Part shown: in pieces, positions 405 to 19,153 of the stretch
Position numbering within the stretch: the stretch's first letter is position 1
Layout: each line of letters opens with the position of its first letter
IMG/VR virus record: IMGVR_UViG_2537561944_000042
Reading direction: 5' to 3' (one strand)
From: a virus
Taxonomy: Duplodnaviria; Heunggongvirae; Uroviricota; Caudoviricetes
DNA: 57,168 bases
Position numbers and translations under genes: made by a program
Notes under the pieces: model-generated
Told to the model about the DNA's origin: nothing
What the model saw: only the letters and a program-made list of their open reading frames with translations
The model's database searches: none

Positions 405-891
405 TTAATATGTAGTGAGGGGGGAACCGTACTCATCTATCACCCAGGAGGCCACAACAAGGACTGATTGATCGTCGTCGTCAACAAAAATGAACCCATG
501 CTTTTCATCTGCGCCATTCGTGAAGACTCGGGGATCATTTTTAAGTGAAACCCAGGAGGCGGTGTCTGGATCATGCCCTTTGTTACGGATGTTTCGAAGT
601 GCCGTTCTGGCAGATTCCCACTGTCTCATGATGTGTTGATTTGATTCCACCTCATGCAACAAATACTGCTTCAAACGAGAAATGGAAAGGAGCTGATTTG
701 GAGGTCTTCTGTAGACGTACATCATGTTCCCGTATCTCTTTGTTATCTGGCAAAGGTGCCAGTTTCGATATTGGGAAGGACCGGAAGGTTTTCAATAGCC
801 GATAGACATAAATTGCAGAACTTCCAGGCGGAACGTGAACGGAGCGGGTAATCAATGCCCGCTCCGTACCAGGAGCGTAAGTTGCTAACAA
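405..891 (-). pseudogene. hypothetical gene split over two overlapping frames (652..891 and 405..725), probable frameshift
   Basis: Two minus-strand ORFs overlap at ~705..725 and read as one protein if a 1-nt shift is allowed; no family recognised. Confidence 0.25.
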
Positions 892-1067
892 CAGTCTGAG
901 TTGATCAGCGGGGAGCAGGTCACTGGATTAGTTGAAAACTGGAACCTATTAGTTCCAGCCATTAATTAATAGCTTTCGAATTATTCTTGAAAAACAATCA
1001 AAAATAGTTGCCAAAACCAAATCAATTAGGACATATTAAACCCATGGTTTTTATTTGGAATTAGAGA

Positions 1068-1886
1068 ATGGAAATTCATGTTCCCATGGAAATGGTAGTA
1101 AGTGATGGAGAAGAAAGATTCACAGAGCTTGATTTTTACTATGGGTCAAAAGCACTTGAAGGCACGTCAGAGATAGTTACAGTCCTCACTAATACGATTC
1201 TAAATCGCGAAGTAGTTACTAAAATCCCATCAATCGAAGGCATAACCGCATCTTTTCGTACCAGTTATGAAGGGTCGTTTAGACAACGTTTCATGCTCAA
1301 GATCACAGGTGAGGAACAACGTAGAAACTATGGCGCAATCGGAGAGGGGGCATTTCTAGATGTTATGTCTTATTATCTTACAAGACCATTATTAACACCT
1401 TATAATTTCACATATAAAAGGGCTGCTAGAATTGTTAAAGAACTTGAGTCAGATTATAGTTCATTAATGAAGAGGCTTTATGGCCCACTATTGAAGCTTC
1501 ATAAGCCCATAGAAGAACAAAATTATACTGTTGAGCTGAAACGGAGAAGGACAAATCTTGCTCGGTATGATCACACGACCCTTGAAAATCTAATTGTTGA
1601 ACGTGCCGATGATGAAAGGATCATTATTGAAGCTTCTATTACAAGATTTAATCGGCTAACGGGGACGGGAAGGCTCATTCTTGAGGAAGATTCTGAGTCT
1701 GTAAGTTTTGAACCTTCATATCTTTGGAGAGATTTTCCAGCAGATCAAAAACGCTGGCTATCTAGAAACTTAGACGTCAACACAGATAATGGTGATTTTA
1801 CTCGTGTACGGCTAGAGGTGACATCAATCAGAAACTTTCTTGGTGTCATTAAAAAATATAGTCTTCACCGAGTTATAACGGATTGA
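1068..1886 (+). CDS. hypothetical soluble protein, first gene of AT-rich two-gene cassette (candidate defence/abortive-infection module)
   Basis: 272-aa ORF; AT-rich codon usage unlike flanking DNA; stop is 1 nt before the start of the next ORF; no motif recognised. Confidence 0.6.
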   Translation: MEIHVPMEMVVSDGEERFTELDFYYGSKALEGTSEIVTVLTNTILNREVVTKIPSIEGITASFRTSYEGSFRQRFMLKITGEEQRRNYGAIGEGAFLDVMSYYLTRPLLTPYNFTYKRAARIVKELESDYSSLMKRLYGPLLKLHKPIEEQNYTVELKRRRTNLARYDHTTLENLIVERADDERIIIEASITRFNRLTGTGRLILEEDSESVSFEPSYLWRDFPADQKRWLSRNLDVNTDNGDFTRVRLEVTSIRNFLGVIKKYSLHRVITD

Positions 1887-1887
1887 T

Positions 1888-2622
1888 ATGATAAAGTATG
1901 TTGCCTTTTTAGTTATATCAGTTACATGGTTGATTTATTTCTTCAATTTCGATCCGTTAAATGGTTTTCCAATTGATAAGTCTGAATGGGGAACATTTGG
2001 TGATTTCGTTGGCGGCGTAACCAACCCCATTTTGACATTTTTTACAATGATTATGTTAATTAAATCAATAAACTTACAAAAAGAGGCTAACATCAGCATT
2101 ATTAAACAAAATTTGCACATGCATGAGGTTTCAGAAAGACAAAAAGAAATTGATGACTTGCGCTCTTTTGAATCATCGTTTTATAGCCTCGCTGAAGTAT
2201 CTAGAAGAGAGTTTGATGCCCTCAGAATAACTGGTAGAAATAAAAAAAACTACTCAGCCTCAGATGCGGTAACCTATTTAGAGAGTTACATGATAAACTC
2301 ATGTAAGTCAAAAAATGCAGAAGAATTATGCAAACAATTTTCTATTTTTGATAATGAATCCTCTATGGCTCTCTTTTCTGCGGTTCGTAGTTTTTATATT
2401 CTATTTAAATTCACAAATGAATCTTGCCCAGAAAACCACAAAGAAAGATATTACGAAATAGCAAATTATACTATGCCTGTGAAATTTCTTCATTTGGTAT
2501 GTTTGGCATACGTATTTAGTGATTGGAAAATAATAAAAGACTTTGAAAGTTTCGGTTTTTTCAATCGCAAAGGATTAGATAAATACATCATGGATTTTAT
2601 GGATGTAAAGAACTTTTATTAG
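1888..2622 (+). CDS. predicted membrane protein with two N-terminal TM helices and WGxFGDFxGG motif; resembles putative phage abortive-infection membrane proteins
   Basis: 244-aa ORF; hydrophobic stretches FLVISVTWLIYFF and ILTFFTMIMLI; tightly coupled to upstream ORF; AT-rich. Confidence 0.6.
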   Translation: MIKYVAFLVISVTWLIYFFNFDPLNGFPIDKSEWGTFGDFVGGVTNPILTFFTMIMLIKSINLQKEANISIIKQNLHMHEVSERQKEIDDLRSFESSFYSLAEVSRREFDALRITGRNKKNYSASDAVTYLESYMINSCKSKNAEELCKQFSIFDNESSMALFSAVRSFYILFKFTNESCPENHKERYYEIANYTMPVKFLHLVCLAYVFSDWKIIKDFESFGFFNRKGLDKYIMDFMDVKNFY

Positions 2623-3025
2623 TTATCAAGATAATTTGACCCTTTGCTAGCCGTTCCCCTATCATCATGATAGTAAGCCGTATGTTTAGATGGTTTATGT
2701 CTGAGATTTTGAGTATCAAATCTTTGGGTCTCGTAAAAAGGTTTGAATCGCTAAGGATAATCTGGACGTCTCCAGGGTCGTTAATTAGACTGACCCCACC
2801 CCGATAGACGATCACTCCCCTATAGTAATAAGCACCATTTCGGACTTCCGCTTCTCGCTCACAACGGACCTTCAGCTCAGCCGCTCCGGCCGCTTCATGC
2901 AATGAATGTACGCAGCCAGTCAGAATATTAAGGTGCGGATTTCAGTTCACTTGTCAGCCCTGTGATGCAACAAGTTGCGGCTCCGGTTCGTGGGAGAGAT
3001 GAAACGACGGTAGCTGAAGTTACTG

Positions 3026-4164
3026 GTAAGCGTGCAGCAAGAACCGTATTGACGGGGATGTGTTATTCAGTCGGCAGTGCTACGCGCCAGGGGAGCAGTT
3101 CGCCGACCCGGTTTATCGGCCAGTCGGCTATGACGTCAAGGACATAGCGGAGGTAGCTTTCTGGCTCCACTCCGTTCAGTTTGCACGTCCCGATCAGGCT
3201 GTACAGCAGCGCTCCCCGCTCTCCTCCATGATCCGAACCGAAGAACAGGTAGTTTTTGCGGCCCAGACTGACCATCCGCAACGCATTTTCAGCGATGTTA
3301 TTGTCCGCCTCAGCCCAGCCATCATCTGCATAGTACGTCAGCGCCGGCCACTGGTTCAGGGCGTATGCGAACGCTTTCGCCAGTTCTGAGTGTCGCGACA
3401 GGGTTTTCATCTTTTCACGCAGCCAGCTTTCCAGGGATTTCAGCAGCGGTTTCGTTTTCAACTGACGTTCGGCAAGGCGCTGCTCCGCCGTCATTCCCCT
3501 TATCTCTGCCTCGATGGCGTACAGTTCGCCGATCCGTTTCAGCGCTTCCTCCGTCAGGGCTGACGGGGTGCGAACGTGCACATCGTGGATTTTACGGCGG
3601 GCGTGAGCCCAACAGGCGGCTTCCGTTATCCGGCCATCCCGGTACAGCTCGTTGAACCCGGCGTATGCATCCGCCTGCAGTACACCACTGAACCCCGCAA
3701 GATGGGTCTGCGGATGGATGCCTTTTCTGTCCGGGCTGTAAGCGAACAACACCGCCGGCGCCAGCGTTGACCCGGCGTTACGGTCGTCACGAACGTAGGT
3801 CCATAACCGCCCGGTCTTCGTTTTCTTATTGCCTGGCAACAGCACCGGGACAGGCGTGTCATCAGCATGGAGCTTACCGTCAGTCAGCACATAGTCCTGA
3901 AGCGCTTCTTCCAGCGGTGACAGTAGCCGGCAGCATGCATCCACCCAGCCCGACAGCAGTGAACGACTCAGCTCCACGCCCTGGCGGCCGTACATTTCAG
4001 ACTGGCGGTACAGCGGGGTGTGCTCTGCATACTTTGAGATCAGCACGCGGGCCAGCAGCCCCGGTCCTGCGATACCCCGCTCGATGGGCCGTGAAGGCGC
4101 GGGGGCCTGCACGATGGCATCGCACTGAGTACAGGCATGCTTTTCACGTACAGTCCGGATAACC
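3026..4164 (-). mobile_element. 5'-truncated IS66-family element remnant (3' part of tnpC plus right terminus), cut by the adjacent IS66 copy
   Basis: Terminus GTAAGCGTGCAGCAAGAACCGTATTGA at 3026 matches the terminus of the full copy at 4165; protein homology to TnpC runs up to ~4160. Confidence 0.6.
3063..4112 (-). pseudogene. IS66-family transposase TnpC, N-terminally truncated (C-terminal ~2/3 only)
   Basis: 349-aa ORF aligns to residues ~175-523 of the neighbouring full-length TnpC ([26 protein letters not shown] blocks); track start is GTG. Confidence 0.75.
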
Positions 4165-4194
4165 GTAAGCGACTCGTCAGAACCGTATTGATAT

Positions 4195-5766
4195 TTACTG
4201 AGAGCTCAGATCAACTTTCCAGGGCAACAGATCGCGTACCCGGTTTGCCGGCCAGTCCTGGATATGTTCAATGACGTAACGCAGCCACTTTTCTGGCTCC
4301 ACATTGTTCAGACGGCATGTGCCGATCAGCGAGTACAACACCGCCGCATGTTCACCACCGCTGTCGGAACCCGCGAACATCCAGTTTTTCCGGCCTACGG
4401 CCACTCCCCGTAAGGCGTTCTCTGCGATGTTGTTGTCGATTTCCACCCAGCCATTACTGCAGTACACGTTCAGTGCATCCCACTGTTTCAGCAGGTATGC
4501 GAACGCTTTTGCCGTATCTGAGTGACGCGACAGTGTTTTCATCTGTTGCTGTATCCAGTCATACAGTGACTGCATCAGTGGCGCGGCTCTGGCTTTTCTT
4601 GCCGCCAGACGCTGTTCTGCTGAACAGCCCCGGACCTCTGCCTCGATGGCATACAGTTCACCGATACGCTGCAGGGCTTCCGTGGTGATGTAGGTGGGCG
4701 CTCTTGCATGCACATCGTGGATTTTTCTCCGGGCATGAGCCATACACGCGGCTTCCGTTATTCTGCCGGATTCGTATAACGCCCGGTAACCACCGTAAGC
4801 ATCGGCCTGAAGCACACCGCTGTAACCGGCCAGGTGATTTTGTGGATGGATACCTTTCCGGTCCGGACTGTACGCGAACCAGACCGCCGGGGGCATCTGT
4901 GAACCGGCGTTACGGTCATCACGGACGTAGACCCACAGCCGGGCTGTCCGGGTTTTACCGCTGCCCGGCTCCTGGACCGGGACGGGGATATCATCAGCAT
5001 GGACTTTACCGGGCATCAGCACATACTGGCGCAGGACGTCATACAGCGGCTCCAGCAGTTCAGCAACAGCACCTGTCCAGCGCCCCAGTGTGGCACGGCT
5101 CAGCTCCACTCCCTGACGACGGTATATTTCTGACTGGCGGTATAACGGCAGATGGTCTGCATATTTCCCGGTGACAACATGGGCCAGAAGCCCCGCTCCG
5201 GCATAACTGCGTGCAATGGGTTTTGAAGGTACTGGTGCCTGCACGATATGGTCGCACCGGCAACAGGCCTGTTTCGGACGTTGTGTTTCGATAACCTTAA
5301 AGGCGCTGCTGATAAGCTCCAGTTGCTCTGACACATCACATCCCAGAGAACTGAGTTCACCACCACAGGCAGGACAGCATTCCTCTTCCGGCCGGATAAC
5401 CCGGGTTTCACGGGGAAGTGAGGCCGGTAACGGTTTACGGGCTGAAGACTGGCGCAGGGCGGATGGCAGTACCGGGTCATATTGCTCACCCAGCGTTTCC
5501 GCCATTTCTTCCTGAAGTGCGCTGATTCGCTCCTGTGCTTCCTGTATCTGCCGTTCGGTTTTTGCACGAAGTTTTTCTGAGCTTTTACCGAACTGCATAC
5601 GTTGCAGTTTCGCAACCAGCGCCTTCAGCCGGTTGATTTCGGAAGCATAAGCCGCCACCCGCTGTGAGAGCAGGCGGTTGTATTCAGCCATCTGGCGGAT
5701 GGTGTCCTGTTGCGTCTGCAACAGTGCCCGCAGGCGGGCGTTCTCATGAGCAAGTGAGGTGTCCAT
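4195..5766 (-). CDS. tnpC: IS66-family transposase TnpC (orf3)
   Basis: 523-aa ORF with N-terminal coiled coil, Cys-rich zinc-ribbon (CPACGG...CRCDH) and conserved IS66 transposase core. Confidence 0.9.
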
Positions 5767-5785
5767 ATCCTCACTTTACAACGGG

Positions 5786-6133
5786 TTATATGCGGATTCC
5801 AGCGCGTTCCGTTCGTTTCGGGTGCTTCCAGTTGATACCTTCAAGAAGCATGGATAACTGAGCCGGAGTAAGGTGCACCTTGCCGTCACGGGTGACTGGC
5901 CAGACGAAGCGGCCCCGCTCCAGGCGTTTGGTGAAGAGGCACAGTCCGTCACTGTCAGCCCACAACACTTTTATCTGGTCACCCCGGCGTCCGCGGAAGA
6001 TGAACAGGTGTCCGGAGAACGGGTCATCCTTCAGGACGTTCTGAACTTTTGATGCCAGGCCGTTAAAGCCATTTCGCATATCGGTGATACCTGCAACCAG
6101 CCAGATACGCGAACCTGCAGGGAGAGATATCAT
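5786..6133 (-). CDS. tnpB: IS66-family accessory protein TnpB (orf2)
   Basis: 115-aa ORF directly upstream of tnpC; sequence typical of IS66 Orf2 (recalled from memory). Confidence 0.85.
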   Translation of the reverse strand: MISLPAGSRIWLVAGITDMRNGFNGLASKVQNVLKDDPFSGHLFIFRGRRGDQIKVLWADSDGLCLFTKRLERGRFVWPVTRDGKVHLTPAQLSMLLEGINWKHPKRTERAGIRI

Positions 6134-6468
6134 CAGTGGCTGCTCCCTTTTATTTCGCGGATAAGTGTCTGTAATAACGCCGGCGTCAGTTTACCTTTAA
6201 GCCTGAGAGTTCCGGCCGGCAGAACCAGCTCACAACACAGACTGTCGGACGGTGTATTTATCTGCTCTGGTTCCTGTGCGGGGGCCGGGATTTTATTATC
6301 CGGCTCCGGCGTTAACGTCACGGGAAGCAGTGCCGGCATATTTTTTCCGGAAGGCAGCAGGCCACCTTTCCGGTATTGATGGCGCCAGTTGAAGAGCAGG
6401 TTATCGTTGATTCCGTTTTCCCGGGCGATCTGCGCCACACAGGCTCCGGGCTGCAGTGACTGCTCCAC
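6133..6468 (-). CDS. tnpA: IS66-family accessory protein TnpA (orf1)
   Basis: 111-aa ORF overlapping tnpB start, typical IS66 orf1 position; HTH-like N-terminus. Confidence 0.8.
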   Translation of the reverse strand: MEQSLQPGACVAQIARENGINDNLLFNWRHQYRKGGLLPSGKNMPALLPVTLTPEPDNKIPAPAQEPEQINTPSDSLCCELVLPAGTLRLKGKLTPALLQTLIREIKGSSH

Positions 6469-6560
6469 TAAGGCGATTTTAAACTCATAAGGGAAGTTGG
6501 GCCGCCGGGGACGTTTTTTACCACGGGGGCTTCGGATATAACGGTGCTTTCAGGACGTAC

Positions 6561-6809
6561 GACTGGTACCGTGGAAAATTGTCCGTAAAGGCAGGCATCA
6601 AGTTCCTGCTCCGACATGCCTGCGGGCAAAGGCCACGAAAGGCCAGCTCTCCGAAAGCGCACGAACATACTACAAACTGTTGATTTTGGTACACCCAGGC
6701 GACGCCCGGCCACAACCCGGGGTAAATGTTCTTCAAAGTGAAGACGTAAAGCTTCAGTGATCCAGGTCCGGTGTTTCATACGATAGTGTCCATTAAAAAT
6801 GATGGACAT
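6561..6809 (-). pseudogene. N-terminal helix-turn-helix fragment of an unrelated transposase, truncated by the IS66 insertion
   Basis: Track ORF 6468..6809 (113 aa) starts outside IS66 and runs into its end; HTH-like RRLGVPKSTVCSMFVRFRRAG; no catalytic domain. Confidence 0.4.
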
Positions 6810-7281: not shown

Positions 7282-8298
7282 ATGAGCAGTGTAAGGACAG
7301 ACAAGTTCATTAGGTATGGTTTTGCGGTTGTGGCGATAGTTGCCATACTCATTACTACTATCACAACCCCCAATCCCACACCTTATCAATATATAGTTTA
7401 CCGAATAGTTCTGGTTCTGGCTGCCGGATGTATTGGTGCAGTTCTGCCTGGTTTCCTTGAAGTAAAATTTAATGGGTGGTTAAGAGCATCTGGCGCAGTG
7501 GCGATCTTCGCTATAGTGTTTTTCATAAGCCCAGATTTGCTTCAACAAAATCCTGAATCTGCAAGTAAACCTGTACCGCCTACTGTGATTGATGCATATG
7601 CCGTTAATAGTTCCAATCGCGACAGATACCTCGAATTATTTCGAACAGGACAGTTCGGTCAGCGGGACAAGCTGCGCATCGGTTGTGTTGAGTGGAGTGA
7701 ATCATCGTGCGTGGCTGCTGGTAATTTTTTGCGATTGTTAAGCGAAGCTGGCTGGGAAATCGATTCTGACGCTGTATTCAGAATGCAACCATCCGTGCCA
7801 GTTGAGGGGGTATCGATTGTAAGCCGTGGCGATGATCTGGTCGGTTTGCCAAAAGTACCACCCCACATGGGCCGTTGGAGTCGATCAGACATTAGTTATG
7901 AAATTTTGACAGCGGCATTTAAATTGATGGGAGTTCCGGTTTATTTTTCCAGTGACCCGACATTACAACCAGGTACTACCGGAGTGTACTTTGGACCGAA
8001 ACCGAAACTGGATGCACCAGTCATGCAAAAAGATGAGAATGTGCGACGTGAGCTTCTCCGCTACGTCGGTTTGGGAATGACTATTCAGCGAGCCTGCTCT
8101 CAGCAGCCCGTCGAACTTTGTGGGGGTGAAATCTTTTCCTGGGAAACGTCGGTATCTTCGTTCCTAAGGCAGCAGAGATTCAACTCCGATGCCGTAAACA
8201 GATGGCTTGCCTTGCCGCAGGTTAATGCGGCTTCGGCAACTGCAGACATGAAAATAAAGCTAGATTTGTTAATGTCATTTGTTCTGGGCATCGAGTAA
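7282..8298 (+). CDS. hypothetical membrane protein (three N-terminal TM helices, ~240-aa soluble C-terminal domain)
   Basis: 338-aa ORF; hydrophobic segments at residues ~13-30, ~35-60, ~68-85; no catalytic motif recognised. Confidence 0.55.
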   Translation: MSSVRTDKFIRYGFAVVAIVAILITTITTPNPTPYQYIVYRIVLVLAAGCIGAVLPGFLEVKFNGWLRASGAVAIFAIVFFISPDLLQQNPESASKPVPPTVIDAYAVNSSNRDRYLELFRTGQFGQRDKLRIGCVEWSESSCVAAGNFLRLLSEAGWEIDSDAVFRMQPSVPVEGVSIVSRGDDLVGLPKVPPHMGRWSRSDISYEILTAAFKLMGVPVYFSSDPTLQPGTTGVYFGPKPKLDAPVMQKDENVRRELLRYVGLGMTIQRACSQQPVELCGGEIFSWETSVSSFLRQQRFNSDAVNRWLALPQVNAASATADMKIKLDLLMSFVLGIE

Positions 8299-18438: not shown

Positions 18439-18535
18439 TATTAGCTCCTTCTGATGCCATTCTATTTCAGGAAGGAGTGTCCGTTAAACTCAGGCTACCT
18501 CACCTCAGCATAAAGAGGCTTTTTTGTAGAAATGG

Positions 18536-19153
18536 TCATCGTAAAACATCCTCCGCACTTACCAGTCCGTTTCGCAAAAGATAATCCATCGCCCTATCAG
18601 GTAATTTGCAATCAGGTTTTGCTTTTTTCAGTTGGCTGACCAATTGTTTAACCAGCATTGTTAATTCGATCACCTGGTAGCGCGGCAATGGTGAATTATC
18701 GGATTTGCCCTGACTGTCATCACTGCATGAATGCCCTTCCAGCCAGGCCAATGCTTGTCGCATGAAATACGCAATATGTTTGCCGTGGTAATCGTCTTCA
18801 TCGATGTGAAAAGCGATACTGCGGATGTATTCTATTGCATTTTCAATGGCCTCCAACGCTATCGGCGCTGGCGGTGCGGTATAAAACTTCGTCCCCAGCG
18901 GCAACAACTTCATCGCTTTTTCTCCCTTAATGATGCGATAAGTTGATTTCCCGCCAAGGTCTACCGTTCCATCCATAACAAGGCCGAGTCGCTTCTCTGA
19001 AACCTCACCAATAGGCTCTGCTTCCAGCGATGCCAGAGCAATTCGTGCCAGTTCTTCCGCTTCTTCTGCTGGCAGTACAACGTTGCTACCAGGTCCGTAT
19101 GTTTCGCGCCACTGCTTGATTGTCAGTAGTCGCTCTTTGGTAATAGTGGTCAT
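18536..19153 (-). CDS. hypothetical phage early protein
   Basis: 205-aa ORF in early-left operon. Confidence 0.5.
   Translation of the reverse strand: MTTITKERLLTIKQWRETYGPGSNVVLPAEEAEELARIALASLEAEPIGEVSEKRLGLVMDGTVDLGGKSTYRIIKGEKAMKLLPLGTKFYTAPPAPIALEAIENAIEYIRSIAFHIDEDDYHGKHIAYFMRQALAWLEGHSCSDDSQGKSDNSPLPRYQVIELTMLVKQLVSQLKKAKPDCKLPDRAMDYLLRNGLVSAEDVLR

Follow-up and report, generated by a model that had tools for sequence, protein, structure and literature searches.

The A-B cassette of an E. coli O26 island

The window analyzed here is the whole 57,168-nucleotide stretch of IMG/VR record IMGVR_UViG_2537561944_000042, filed as a virus of the Caudoviricetes, and near its start lies a cassette of two genes, here called A and B, which on the evidence of sequence we consider a credible candidate defense system. 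Gene A (1068..1886, + strand, 272 amino acids) and gene B (1888..2622, + strand, 244 amino acids) are both intact open reading frames (ORFs). They meet at GAT-TGA-T-ATG, so that a single nucleotide separates the stop codon of A from the start codon of B (TGA-T-ATG, 1884..1890), and B lacks a Shine-Dalgarno sequence of its own. This one-nucleotide spacer suggests that translation of B is coupled to that of A. A first-pass annotation, made by a model from the sequence without database searches, had reported the two ORFs at 1068-2622 and one nucleotide apart, and its coordinates are exact.

The cassette is AT-rich compared with the insertion sequence (IS) DNA that flanks it, as the same annotation had described. 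Its GC content is 35.1% (38.6% in A and 31.3% in B), where the window as a whole has 46.4% and the neighboring IS66 block 56.7%, and falls in the lowest 2% among windows of the same size. By composition, the AT-rich block that holds the cassette (35% GC) extends over 900..2750, and its downstream border is formed by GC-rich DNA and an IS66-family terminus at 3026. The host DNA is that of an E. coli O26:H11 chromosome, within a CP4-type island with YeeU, antirestriction, DUF932, Ag43 and GTPase genes, where the cassette adjoins a DUF4365 gene, an HsdR-N-like gene, and nested IS66 and IS3 elements. A 1.9-kb cassette query is matched at 99% identity or more in 82 of 5426 complete E. coli genomes, and the match is chromosomal in every case. 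When the flanks of the O26 cassette were compared with phage records, no phage or satellite remnants appeared, the sole match being the IS66 terminus. No tRNA or Rfam family was found in the window.

RefSeq labels both products as hypothetical proteins. A corresponds to WP_000426255.1, which begins at M7, and to phrog_13337, and B to WP_000599124.1 and phrog_8999. The Prokaryotic Genome Annotation Pipeline (PGAP) places the start of A at 1086 (M7); we favor the start at 1068 because the residues ahead of M7 are conserved across genera and an AlphaFold2 (AF2) model puts them in the first β-strand. Upstream of A, a candidate sigma-70-like promoter (1008..1037, + strand) consists of TTGCCA, an 18-nucleotide spacer and CATATT, with only nine of 12 consensus matches. 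Sigma-70-like sites near the cassette are not more numerous than expected from shuffled sequence, and this promoter is weak and a candidate only. The cassette is flanked by two opposite-strand ORFs, at 405-725 (- strand, 106 amino acids) and 2597-2902 (- strand, 101 amino acids), the second of which shares 26 nucleotides with the 3' end of B; there is no sign that either is a gene.

Protein A carries a predicted OB-fold

Protein A is predicted to be soluble and cytoplasmic, with no hydrophobic segment (maximum Kyte-Doolittle hydropathy over 19 residues, KD19, 0.77). The first-pass annotation had seen no recognizable domain in it, a statement that the family as a whole overturns. Taken alone, A gives collinear sub-threshold scores of 14 bits to DUF7946 (PF25678) and 15 bits to DUF7947 (PF25679), where the cut-off is 27 bits. 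Across the A family, DUF7946 is recovered in 28/28 members and DUF7947 in 23/28, again collinear, with best E values of 5.9e-5 and 1e-6, and several more distant relatives bear precomputed PF25678 or PF25679 annotation. A Pfam match of A to ‘Vasohibin’ (E 0.027) was set aside as chance, being seen in one of 28 family members.

The AF2 model of A (predicted local distance difference test, pLDDT, 87.9; predicted template modeling score, pTM, 0.80) consists of an N-terminal α/β domain in the DUF7946 region (residues 1-180, 1068..1607) and a C-terminal barrel in the DUF7947 region (residues 181-272, 1608..1883). In the model, the barrel's order of β1-β2-β3-α-β4-β5, with five strands and a helix between strands 3 and 4, matches oligonucleotide/oligosaccharide-binding (OB) folds. 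Structure prediction, a check that the annotation had suggested, thus yielded an OB-fold for the C-terminus, and the N-terminal domain found no match to any solved fold. The A-family profile has no sequence relatives in the Protein Data Bank (PDB), and neither structure nor profile comparisons detected a nuclease or other effector fold in A. When relatives down to 22% identity are aligned, S70 and H145 of the N-terminal domain stay invariant, as do G201, R202, F214 and L235 of the OB domain, and these invariant OB residues fall in the signature T-R-F-N-x-x-T-G-[TN]-G-R. The OB domain is mostly basic in the family (median isoelectric point 9.35) and acidic in the window's copy (5.4). Judged by sequence and model together, A is a divergent DUF7946 and DUF7947 protein with a C-terminal OB-fold.

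Protein B belongs to a divergent branch of the AbiC superfamily

Protein B has 39 close homologs (45-100% identity) in Enterobacterales and Pseudomonas, plus one remote homolog, P0040. P0040 is a protein of PF16872 (putAbiC), a family that, going by its name, we take to stand for lactococcal AbiC; it matches B with an E value of 2.7e-10 and PF16872 with 2.4e-18. None of the 26 close family members of B hits PF16872, and the bridge protein P0040 alone does. To prevent circularity, we made the B-family profile without P0040 or any PF16872 member and searched it against 1.84 billion representative proteins, which returned 3964 relatives at E<=1e-3, of which 301 reached E<=1e-10. Among 87 sampled relatives, 28 carry PF16872 (best E 2.1e-26), and no other family recurs. 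Because a profile free of P0040 recovers PF16872 members, the sequence evidence places B in the AbiC (putAbiC) superfamily, as a divergent, short branch that curated models miss. A tblastn search of B against plasmids likewise reached genes named ‘putative phage abortive infection protein’ by PGAP, with E values of 1e-6 to 3e-9, in Vibrio, Leptospira and Cupriavidus. The first-pass annotation had linked WGTFGDFVGG to putative phage abortive-infection membrane proteins, and this link proved correct: the motif is invariant in the B family, and the family profile reaches PF16872.

Hydropathy identifies two hydrophobic segments in B, at about residues 1-21 and 40-58, and the AF2 model (pLDDT 93.8) agrees with the two N-terminal transmembrane (TM) helices described earlier. 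It shows a helix at residues 2-21 (TM1, 1891..1950), a very long helix at residues 31-110 that comprises TM2 and a stalk, and a helical domain at residues 124-243. TM2 itself (residues 34-58, 1987..2061) begins with the invariant WGxFGDFxGGxxNP (residues 34-47, 1987-2028). The stalk helix, which includes the conserved F94-E95 and runs to residue 110, and the helical globular domain that follows it (together 2062..2619) are predicted to be cytoplasmic. The B-family profile has no sequence relatives in the PDB.

Within the motif W34-G-T-F-G-D-F-V-G-G43, the residues W34, G35, F37, G38, D39, F40, G42 and G43 are invariant in the B family, and across the superfamily the near-invariant positions are Y17, F21, W34, G38, G42, G43, P47, L57, Q64, F94 and E95. 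Conservation in the superfamily is thus concentrated in the membrane hairpin, where the motif is the best-conserved element of all, and in the first part of the stalk; the cytoplasmic domain is variable. This pattern fits a hairpin that acts as an effector better than one that serves as a passive anchor. The N-terminus of B is basic, the loop between the TM helices acidic and the segment after TM2 mildly basic, from which we infer a topology with the N-terminus inside, the loop outside and the C-terminus inside; the globular domain of B would therefore share a compartment with A.

Relatives of B also occur on plasmids and in another P2 region. A B-like plasmid subfamily (H40-H53; spanning residues 5-204 of B at 28-30% identity) is found in E. 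coli, E. albertii, Klebsiella and Salmonella, for example at NZ_CP049104.1 5009-5557 and AP026500.1 19568-20128, mostly on plasmids of 38-52 kb and on two of 4.6-6.1 kb. A short remote relative, 29% identical over residues 8-131, is ORF1 of the P2-EC45 Z-region (AJ512679.1 259-771), annotated as a ‘putative lysogenic conversion protein’; by this resemblance, AbiC-like hairpins are also present in the second P2 variable region.

That annotation is one reason to consider superinfection exclusion or some other lysogenic conversion of the envelope, in which the pair would block DNA injection or alter the cell surface instead of sensing infection within the cell. The pair is prophage-borne, and B is a predicted inner-membrane protein with a conserved turn that would face the periplasm, both of which suit such a role. 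We nevertheless find it improbable. Known superinfection exclusion proteins are single small membrane proteins without a cytoplasmic OB-fold partner, prediction places 185 of the 244 residues of B, and A in its entirety, in the cytoplasm, and the cassette also occurs in islands that are not prophages, such as the O26 locus.

A and B are inherited as one unit

The first-pass annotation had called the two genes tightly coupled, and comparison across genomes shows that this arrangement is not due to chance. We gathered 80 genome loci through the B motif and defined short B proteins as those of 243-261 amino acids with a strong full-length match. At all 33 short-B loci a gene A ends at the start of B, with gaps of -50 to +8 nucleotides. 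Among the same 80 loci, a gene A stands upstream of none of the putAbiC relatives of 280-420 amino acids. Scanning IMG/VR with a degenerate DNA pattern for the OB signature of A returned 32 loci, all of them true A genes, with B directly downstream in all 29 evaluable viral contigs, and six further loci show the same tight coupling. Short gaps or overlaps mark the junction in all homologous loci.

The association persists at considerable divergence, since relatives of A at 26-37% identity still bear a B-family gene (E 1e-40 to 1e-59). The two proteins also diverge together: over 53 pairs, A-A and B-B identities correlate with r = 0.893, a value that none of 2000 Mantel permutations matched or exceeded. 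The pair is found in Gamma- and Betaproteobacteria and in one acidobacterial metagenome-assembled genome (MAG), and its carriers include P2, P4, lambdoid and satellite elements. In the short-B subfamily, the pairing of A with B is obligate.

No conserved third gene was found around A-B among the compared loci. ORFs of about 590 amino acids that follow B at two loci (L017 and L027) are not homologous to one another and were rejected as a third component. A recurrent 163-amino acid ORF located 5' of long putAbiC genes was likewise rejected as a partner, as it is a PurE-type housekeeping gene and is 100% identical in four MAG contigs.

A-B occupies phage and satellite cargo hotspots

The neighbors of A-B vary and the pair stays constant. 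Integrases, resolvases, PD-Lambda-5, HerA, methyltransferases, Panacea antitoxin, terminase and Q all occur beside it. A satellite-like island of Pseudomonas that encodes a capsid bears A-B at its cargo end. In Kosakonia, where a prophage is integrated at icd, the pair separates icd from the int/xis genes of that prophage and has a Shedu-type gene nearby, and in a Klebsiella lambdoid phage it follows the cII-O-P genes. On most viral contigs the pair lies between the P2 replication gene gpA and the portal and terminase genes (gpQ, P), and we confirmed the gpA and gpQ flanks gene by gene on three of them (L098, L106 and L114). Both the gpA-gpQ locus, where old and tin reside, and the P4 hotspot are reservoirs of anti-phage systems, and several of their cassettes have been experimentally validated (Rousset et al. 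2022, PMC9122126).

Searching the tables of that study for our signature motifs revealed that it already lists the A-B pair, without a name or a Pfam assignment, as P2 system #77 (Table S5B, 50 occurrences) and P4 system #31 (Table S1B, 49 occurrences). By BLASTP, the window's B is 35% identical to its counterparts (E 3e-42) and A 27-28% (E 3e-30 and 6e-24). The two families and their adjacency are the same as in the window; the listed copies reside in P2-like prophages and P4-like satellites, whereas the window's copy belongs to a divergent clade and lies in a chromosomal island of CP4 type, with IS66 elements on its flanks. System #86 of Table S5B holds the same membrane module in another, multi-gene context.

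The A-B motifs do not appear in that study's table of tested systems (Table S2), nor in the DefensePredictor supplements, and the pair is not mentioned in the other 2025-26 discovery papers that we examined. In a 2026 follow-up in Nucleic Acids Research (NAR), six of eight randomly picked P4 loci of unknown function were protective, and none of the six systems named there is like A-B. We found no publication on DUF7946, DUF7947, PF16872, putAbiC or the WP accessions of A and B. What is already known of the pair is thus its PHROG families, the DUF models and two rows of supplementary tables, and its AbiC affiliation, OB-fold partner, strict pairing and breadth appear undescribed in the searchable literature.

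A tightly coupled pair with the soluble partner encoded first, strictly co-inherited, co-diverging and always found on mobile elements, could also be a toxin-antitoxin addiction module, in which B would be a membrane toxin and A its antitoxin, and which would stabilize the carrier element with no dedicated role against phages. We regard this as quite unlikely. The pair occupies exchangeable P2 and P4 cargo hotspots, whose tested cassettes are mostly anti-phage, and not maintenance modules, and A, a 272-residue protein of two domains with an OB-fold, is large and unlike small labile antitoxins. Moreover, addiction and defense can coexist in one system.

A and B as a candidate abortive-infection module

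On balance, we lean towards reading the pair as a two-gene anti-phage module of the abortive-infection type that is autonomous and moves horizontally, in which A would be the sensor or regulator and B the effector in the membrane. The first-pass annotation had raised an abortive-infection module as a possibility, and AbiC kinship, the conserved and mobile two-gene architecture, and the location in P2 and P4 hotspots lend it support; neither protein fell into a characterized non-defense family. We assign the effector role to the membrane protein because lactococcal AbiC and the long relatives are single-gene and conservation peaks in the hairpin.

Under this reading, the short N-terminus of B would be intracellular, its TM hairpin would bear WGxFGD[FY]xGGxxNP in the periplasm-facing turn and the second helix, and its long stalk and helical domain would lie in the cytoplasm. 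A would be made in a fixed ratio to B through translational coupling. In the uninfected cell, A might keep B inactive or might itself be idle. Upon infection, the OB-fold or the N-terminal domain of A would recognize a phage cue, for example a phage protein or a replication intermediate of single-stranded DNA (ssDNA) or RNA. A would then act on the cytoplasmic domain of B. The TM hairpins of B might oligomerize or open, and the resulting perturbation of the membrane would halt both the development of the phage and the growth of its host.

AbiC is a single-gene system with two TM helices, grouped as AbiC/P, and its mechanism and fold are still unassigned in a 2026 review (PMC13064643). B shares with AbiC and putAbiC the N-terminal two-TM hairpin with WGxFGD[FY]xGG followed by a helical extramembrane domain, along with homology at the profile level, a location on mobile elements and, as for AbiC (PMC13064643), a fold without a solved counterpart. 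It differs in being 243-261 instead of 280-420 amino acids long, in falling below Pfam and PADLOC detection, and in occurring in Proteobacteria, whereas AbiC is found in Lactococcus. Furthermore, co-occurrence shows B always with an OB-fold partner gene, whereas AbiC is single-gene and the long relatives have no partner. We therefore class the pair as a variant of the AbiC kind and not as AbiC itself, since homology and architecture agree while the Pfam score stays under threshold and the system is not single-gene.

AbiP, which is structurally related to AbiC, needs both its TM domain and its nucleic-acid-binding domain (PMC13064643), which makes a separate OB-fold partner plausible as a split version of the same design. 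Both AbiP and the A-B pair join a membrane anchor to a nucleic-acid-binding function; AbiP does so in one polypeptide with a single TM helix, and here the putative nucleic-acid-binding OB-fold resides on a separate protein. A more specific form of our reading is a two-component version of AbiC/P, in which an OB-fold protein with a novel N-terminal domain would sense a phage replication intermediate or protein and gate a new membrane-perturbing WGxFGDxxGGxxNP hairpin. We put this forward tentatively, as a possibility that is more doubtful than the general reading.

The RexAB pair of phage lambda offers a further parallel. It is a prophage pair in which a soluble partner of about 270 amino acids, of DNA-binding type, is encoded 5' of a membrane protein, and it is thought to abort infection by depolarization. 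The likeness to A-B is one of layout only, and no homology was found between A and RexA or between B and the four-TM RexB.

Several results weigh against the abortive-infection reading. The profile searches proposed by the first-pass annotation gave a mixed outcome: family profiles provide the putAbiC and DUF7946/DUF7947 links, but the curated models of Pfam, PADLOC 2.0.0 and NCBIfam call neither protein. For B they return no hit, and PF16872 does not appear even at E<=1; for A, neither PADLOC (at E<=1) nor NCBIfam returns one, and Pfam gives sub-threshold scores only. Searching plasmids by tblastn with B and with P0040 reached no Lactococcus record that would tie the family to lactococcal AbiC, and comparing the B model with PDB folds yielded no informative match and no known pore or channel. 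The acidity of the window's OB domain makes nucleic-acid sensing less likely for this copy. Not all cargo of the P2 hotspots serves defense; partition systems and the cdt toxin, for example, are also found there (PMC9122126). A lactococcal ‘AbiC-like’ gene, 38% identical, gave no protection in a recent screen (PMC11381338), and membership of the AbiC family is therefore no guarantee of activity. Lastly, the roles of sensor and effector that we assign to A and B could be reversed.

Such a reversal, the foremost rival to our reading, would resemble the polarity of Kiwa. B would be a membrane sensor or scaffold responding to an envelope or injection event, and A the effector, whose OB-fold would attach to phage ssDNA or RNA so that replication or late gene expression is blocked and the cell is left alive. 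The OB-fold of A is the only domain of the pair with a recognizable class of biochemical activity, it is basic in most family members, the invariant S70 and H145 of the N-terminal domain could be catalytic, and the periplasm-facing motif of B could be a sensor. In addition, lactococcal AbiC lowers capsid protein production, lysis or depolarization is not its demonstrated effect, and AbiP binds RNA and ssDNA (PMC13064643). Set against this are the concentration of superfamily conservation in the TM hairpin of B, the acidic OB domain in the window, and the absence of a detected nuclease or effector fold in A. The long solo putAbiC proteins, if active, act without A, and AbiC is single-gene, so there the membrane protein suffices. 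Kiwa itself is alike in being a two-gene module of membrane and soluble proteins that is also found in P4 hotspots, but PADLOC finds no homology, KwaA has four TM helices, and the fold of KwaB (DUF4868) is unlike that of A. We consider this reversed arrangement unlikely, and hold to A as the sensor or regulator and B as the membrane effector.

Other genes of the island

About 2 kb 5' of the cassette and just beyond the window lies the DUF4365 gene (17760-18614 of locus L001, strain 11368). ‘DUF4365/PDDEXK_5’ is P4-hotspot system #15, with 82 occurrences (PMC9122126, Table S1B). A neighbor with the domain of a listed P4-hotspot system suggests that the O26 island has been pieced together from hotspot cargo.

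Within the window, 3026-6800 is occupied by nested IS66-family elements, namely a truncated ISEc22-type transposase (3063-4112, - strand) and, directly adjoining it, a complete ISCro1-type copy that carries tnpA, tnpB and tnpC. An intact 786-amino acid ORF at 8942-11302 (+ strand), which may be a further defense-island gene, is split by IS3 in strain 11368, where its parts are annotated as an ‘HsdR N-terminal domain protein’ and a 569-amino acid hypothetical protein; the intact ORF has no sequence relative in the PDB. The same holds for a 338-amino acid hypothetical protein at 7282-8298 (+ strand), between the IS66 block and the 786-amino acid ORF. A second strongly AT-rich block at about 11950-13500, with GC content down to 0.305, includes an ORF at 11923-12618 (231 amino acids) and is probably another horizontally acquired gene.

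Significance

AbiC was among the first abortive-infection genes described, and its mechanism has been unsolved since 1992. The AbiC membrane module, whose superfamily has about 4000 representative clusters, proves to have a large proteobacterial radiation that Pfam, PADLOC 2.0.0 and NCBIfam miss. One AbiC-like branch has acquired an obligate OB-fold partner, and in enterobacteria and pseudomonads, enterohemorrhagic E. coli (EHEC) O26 among them, this partnered branch travels through P2, P4, lambdoid and satellite hotspots. Should the pair prove inactive, DUF7946, DUF7947, phrog_13337 and phrog_8999 would still be marked as partners of AbiC-like proteins. If it is active, it would be a new entry for defense catalogs and would account for two unnamed hotspot cassettes with about 50 occurrences each in E. 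coli. If the two-component AbiC/P reading is true, the separable sensor and effector polypeptides of a system native to E. coli would offer the first tractable route to an AbiC-type mechanism.

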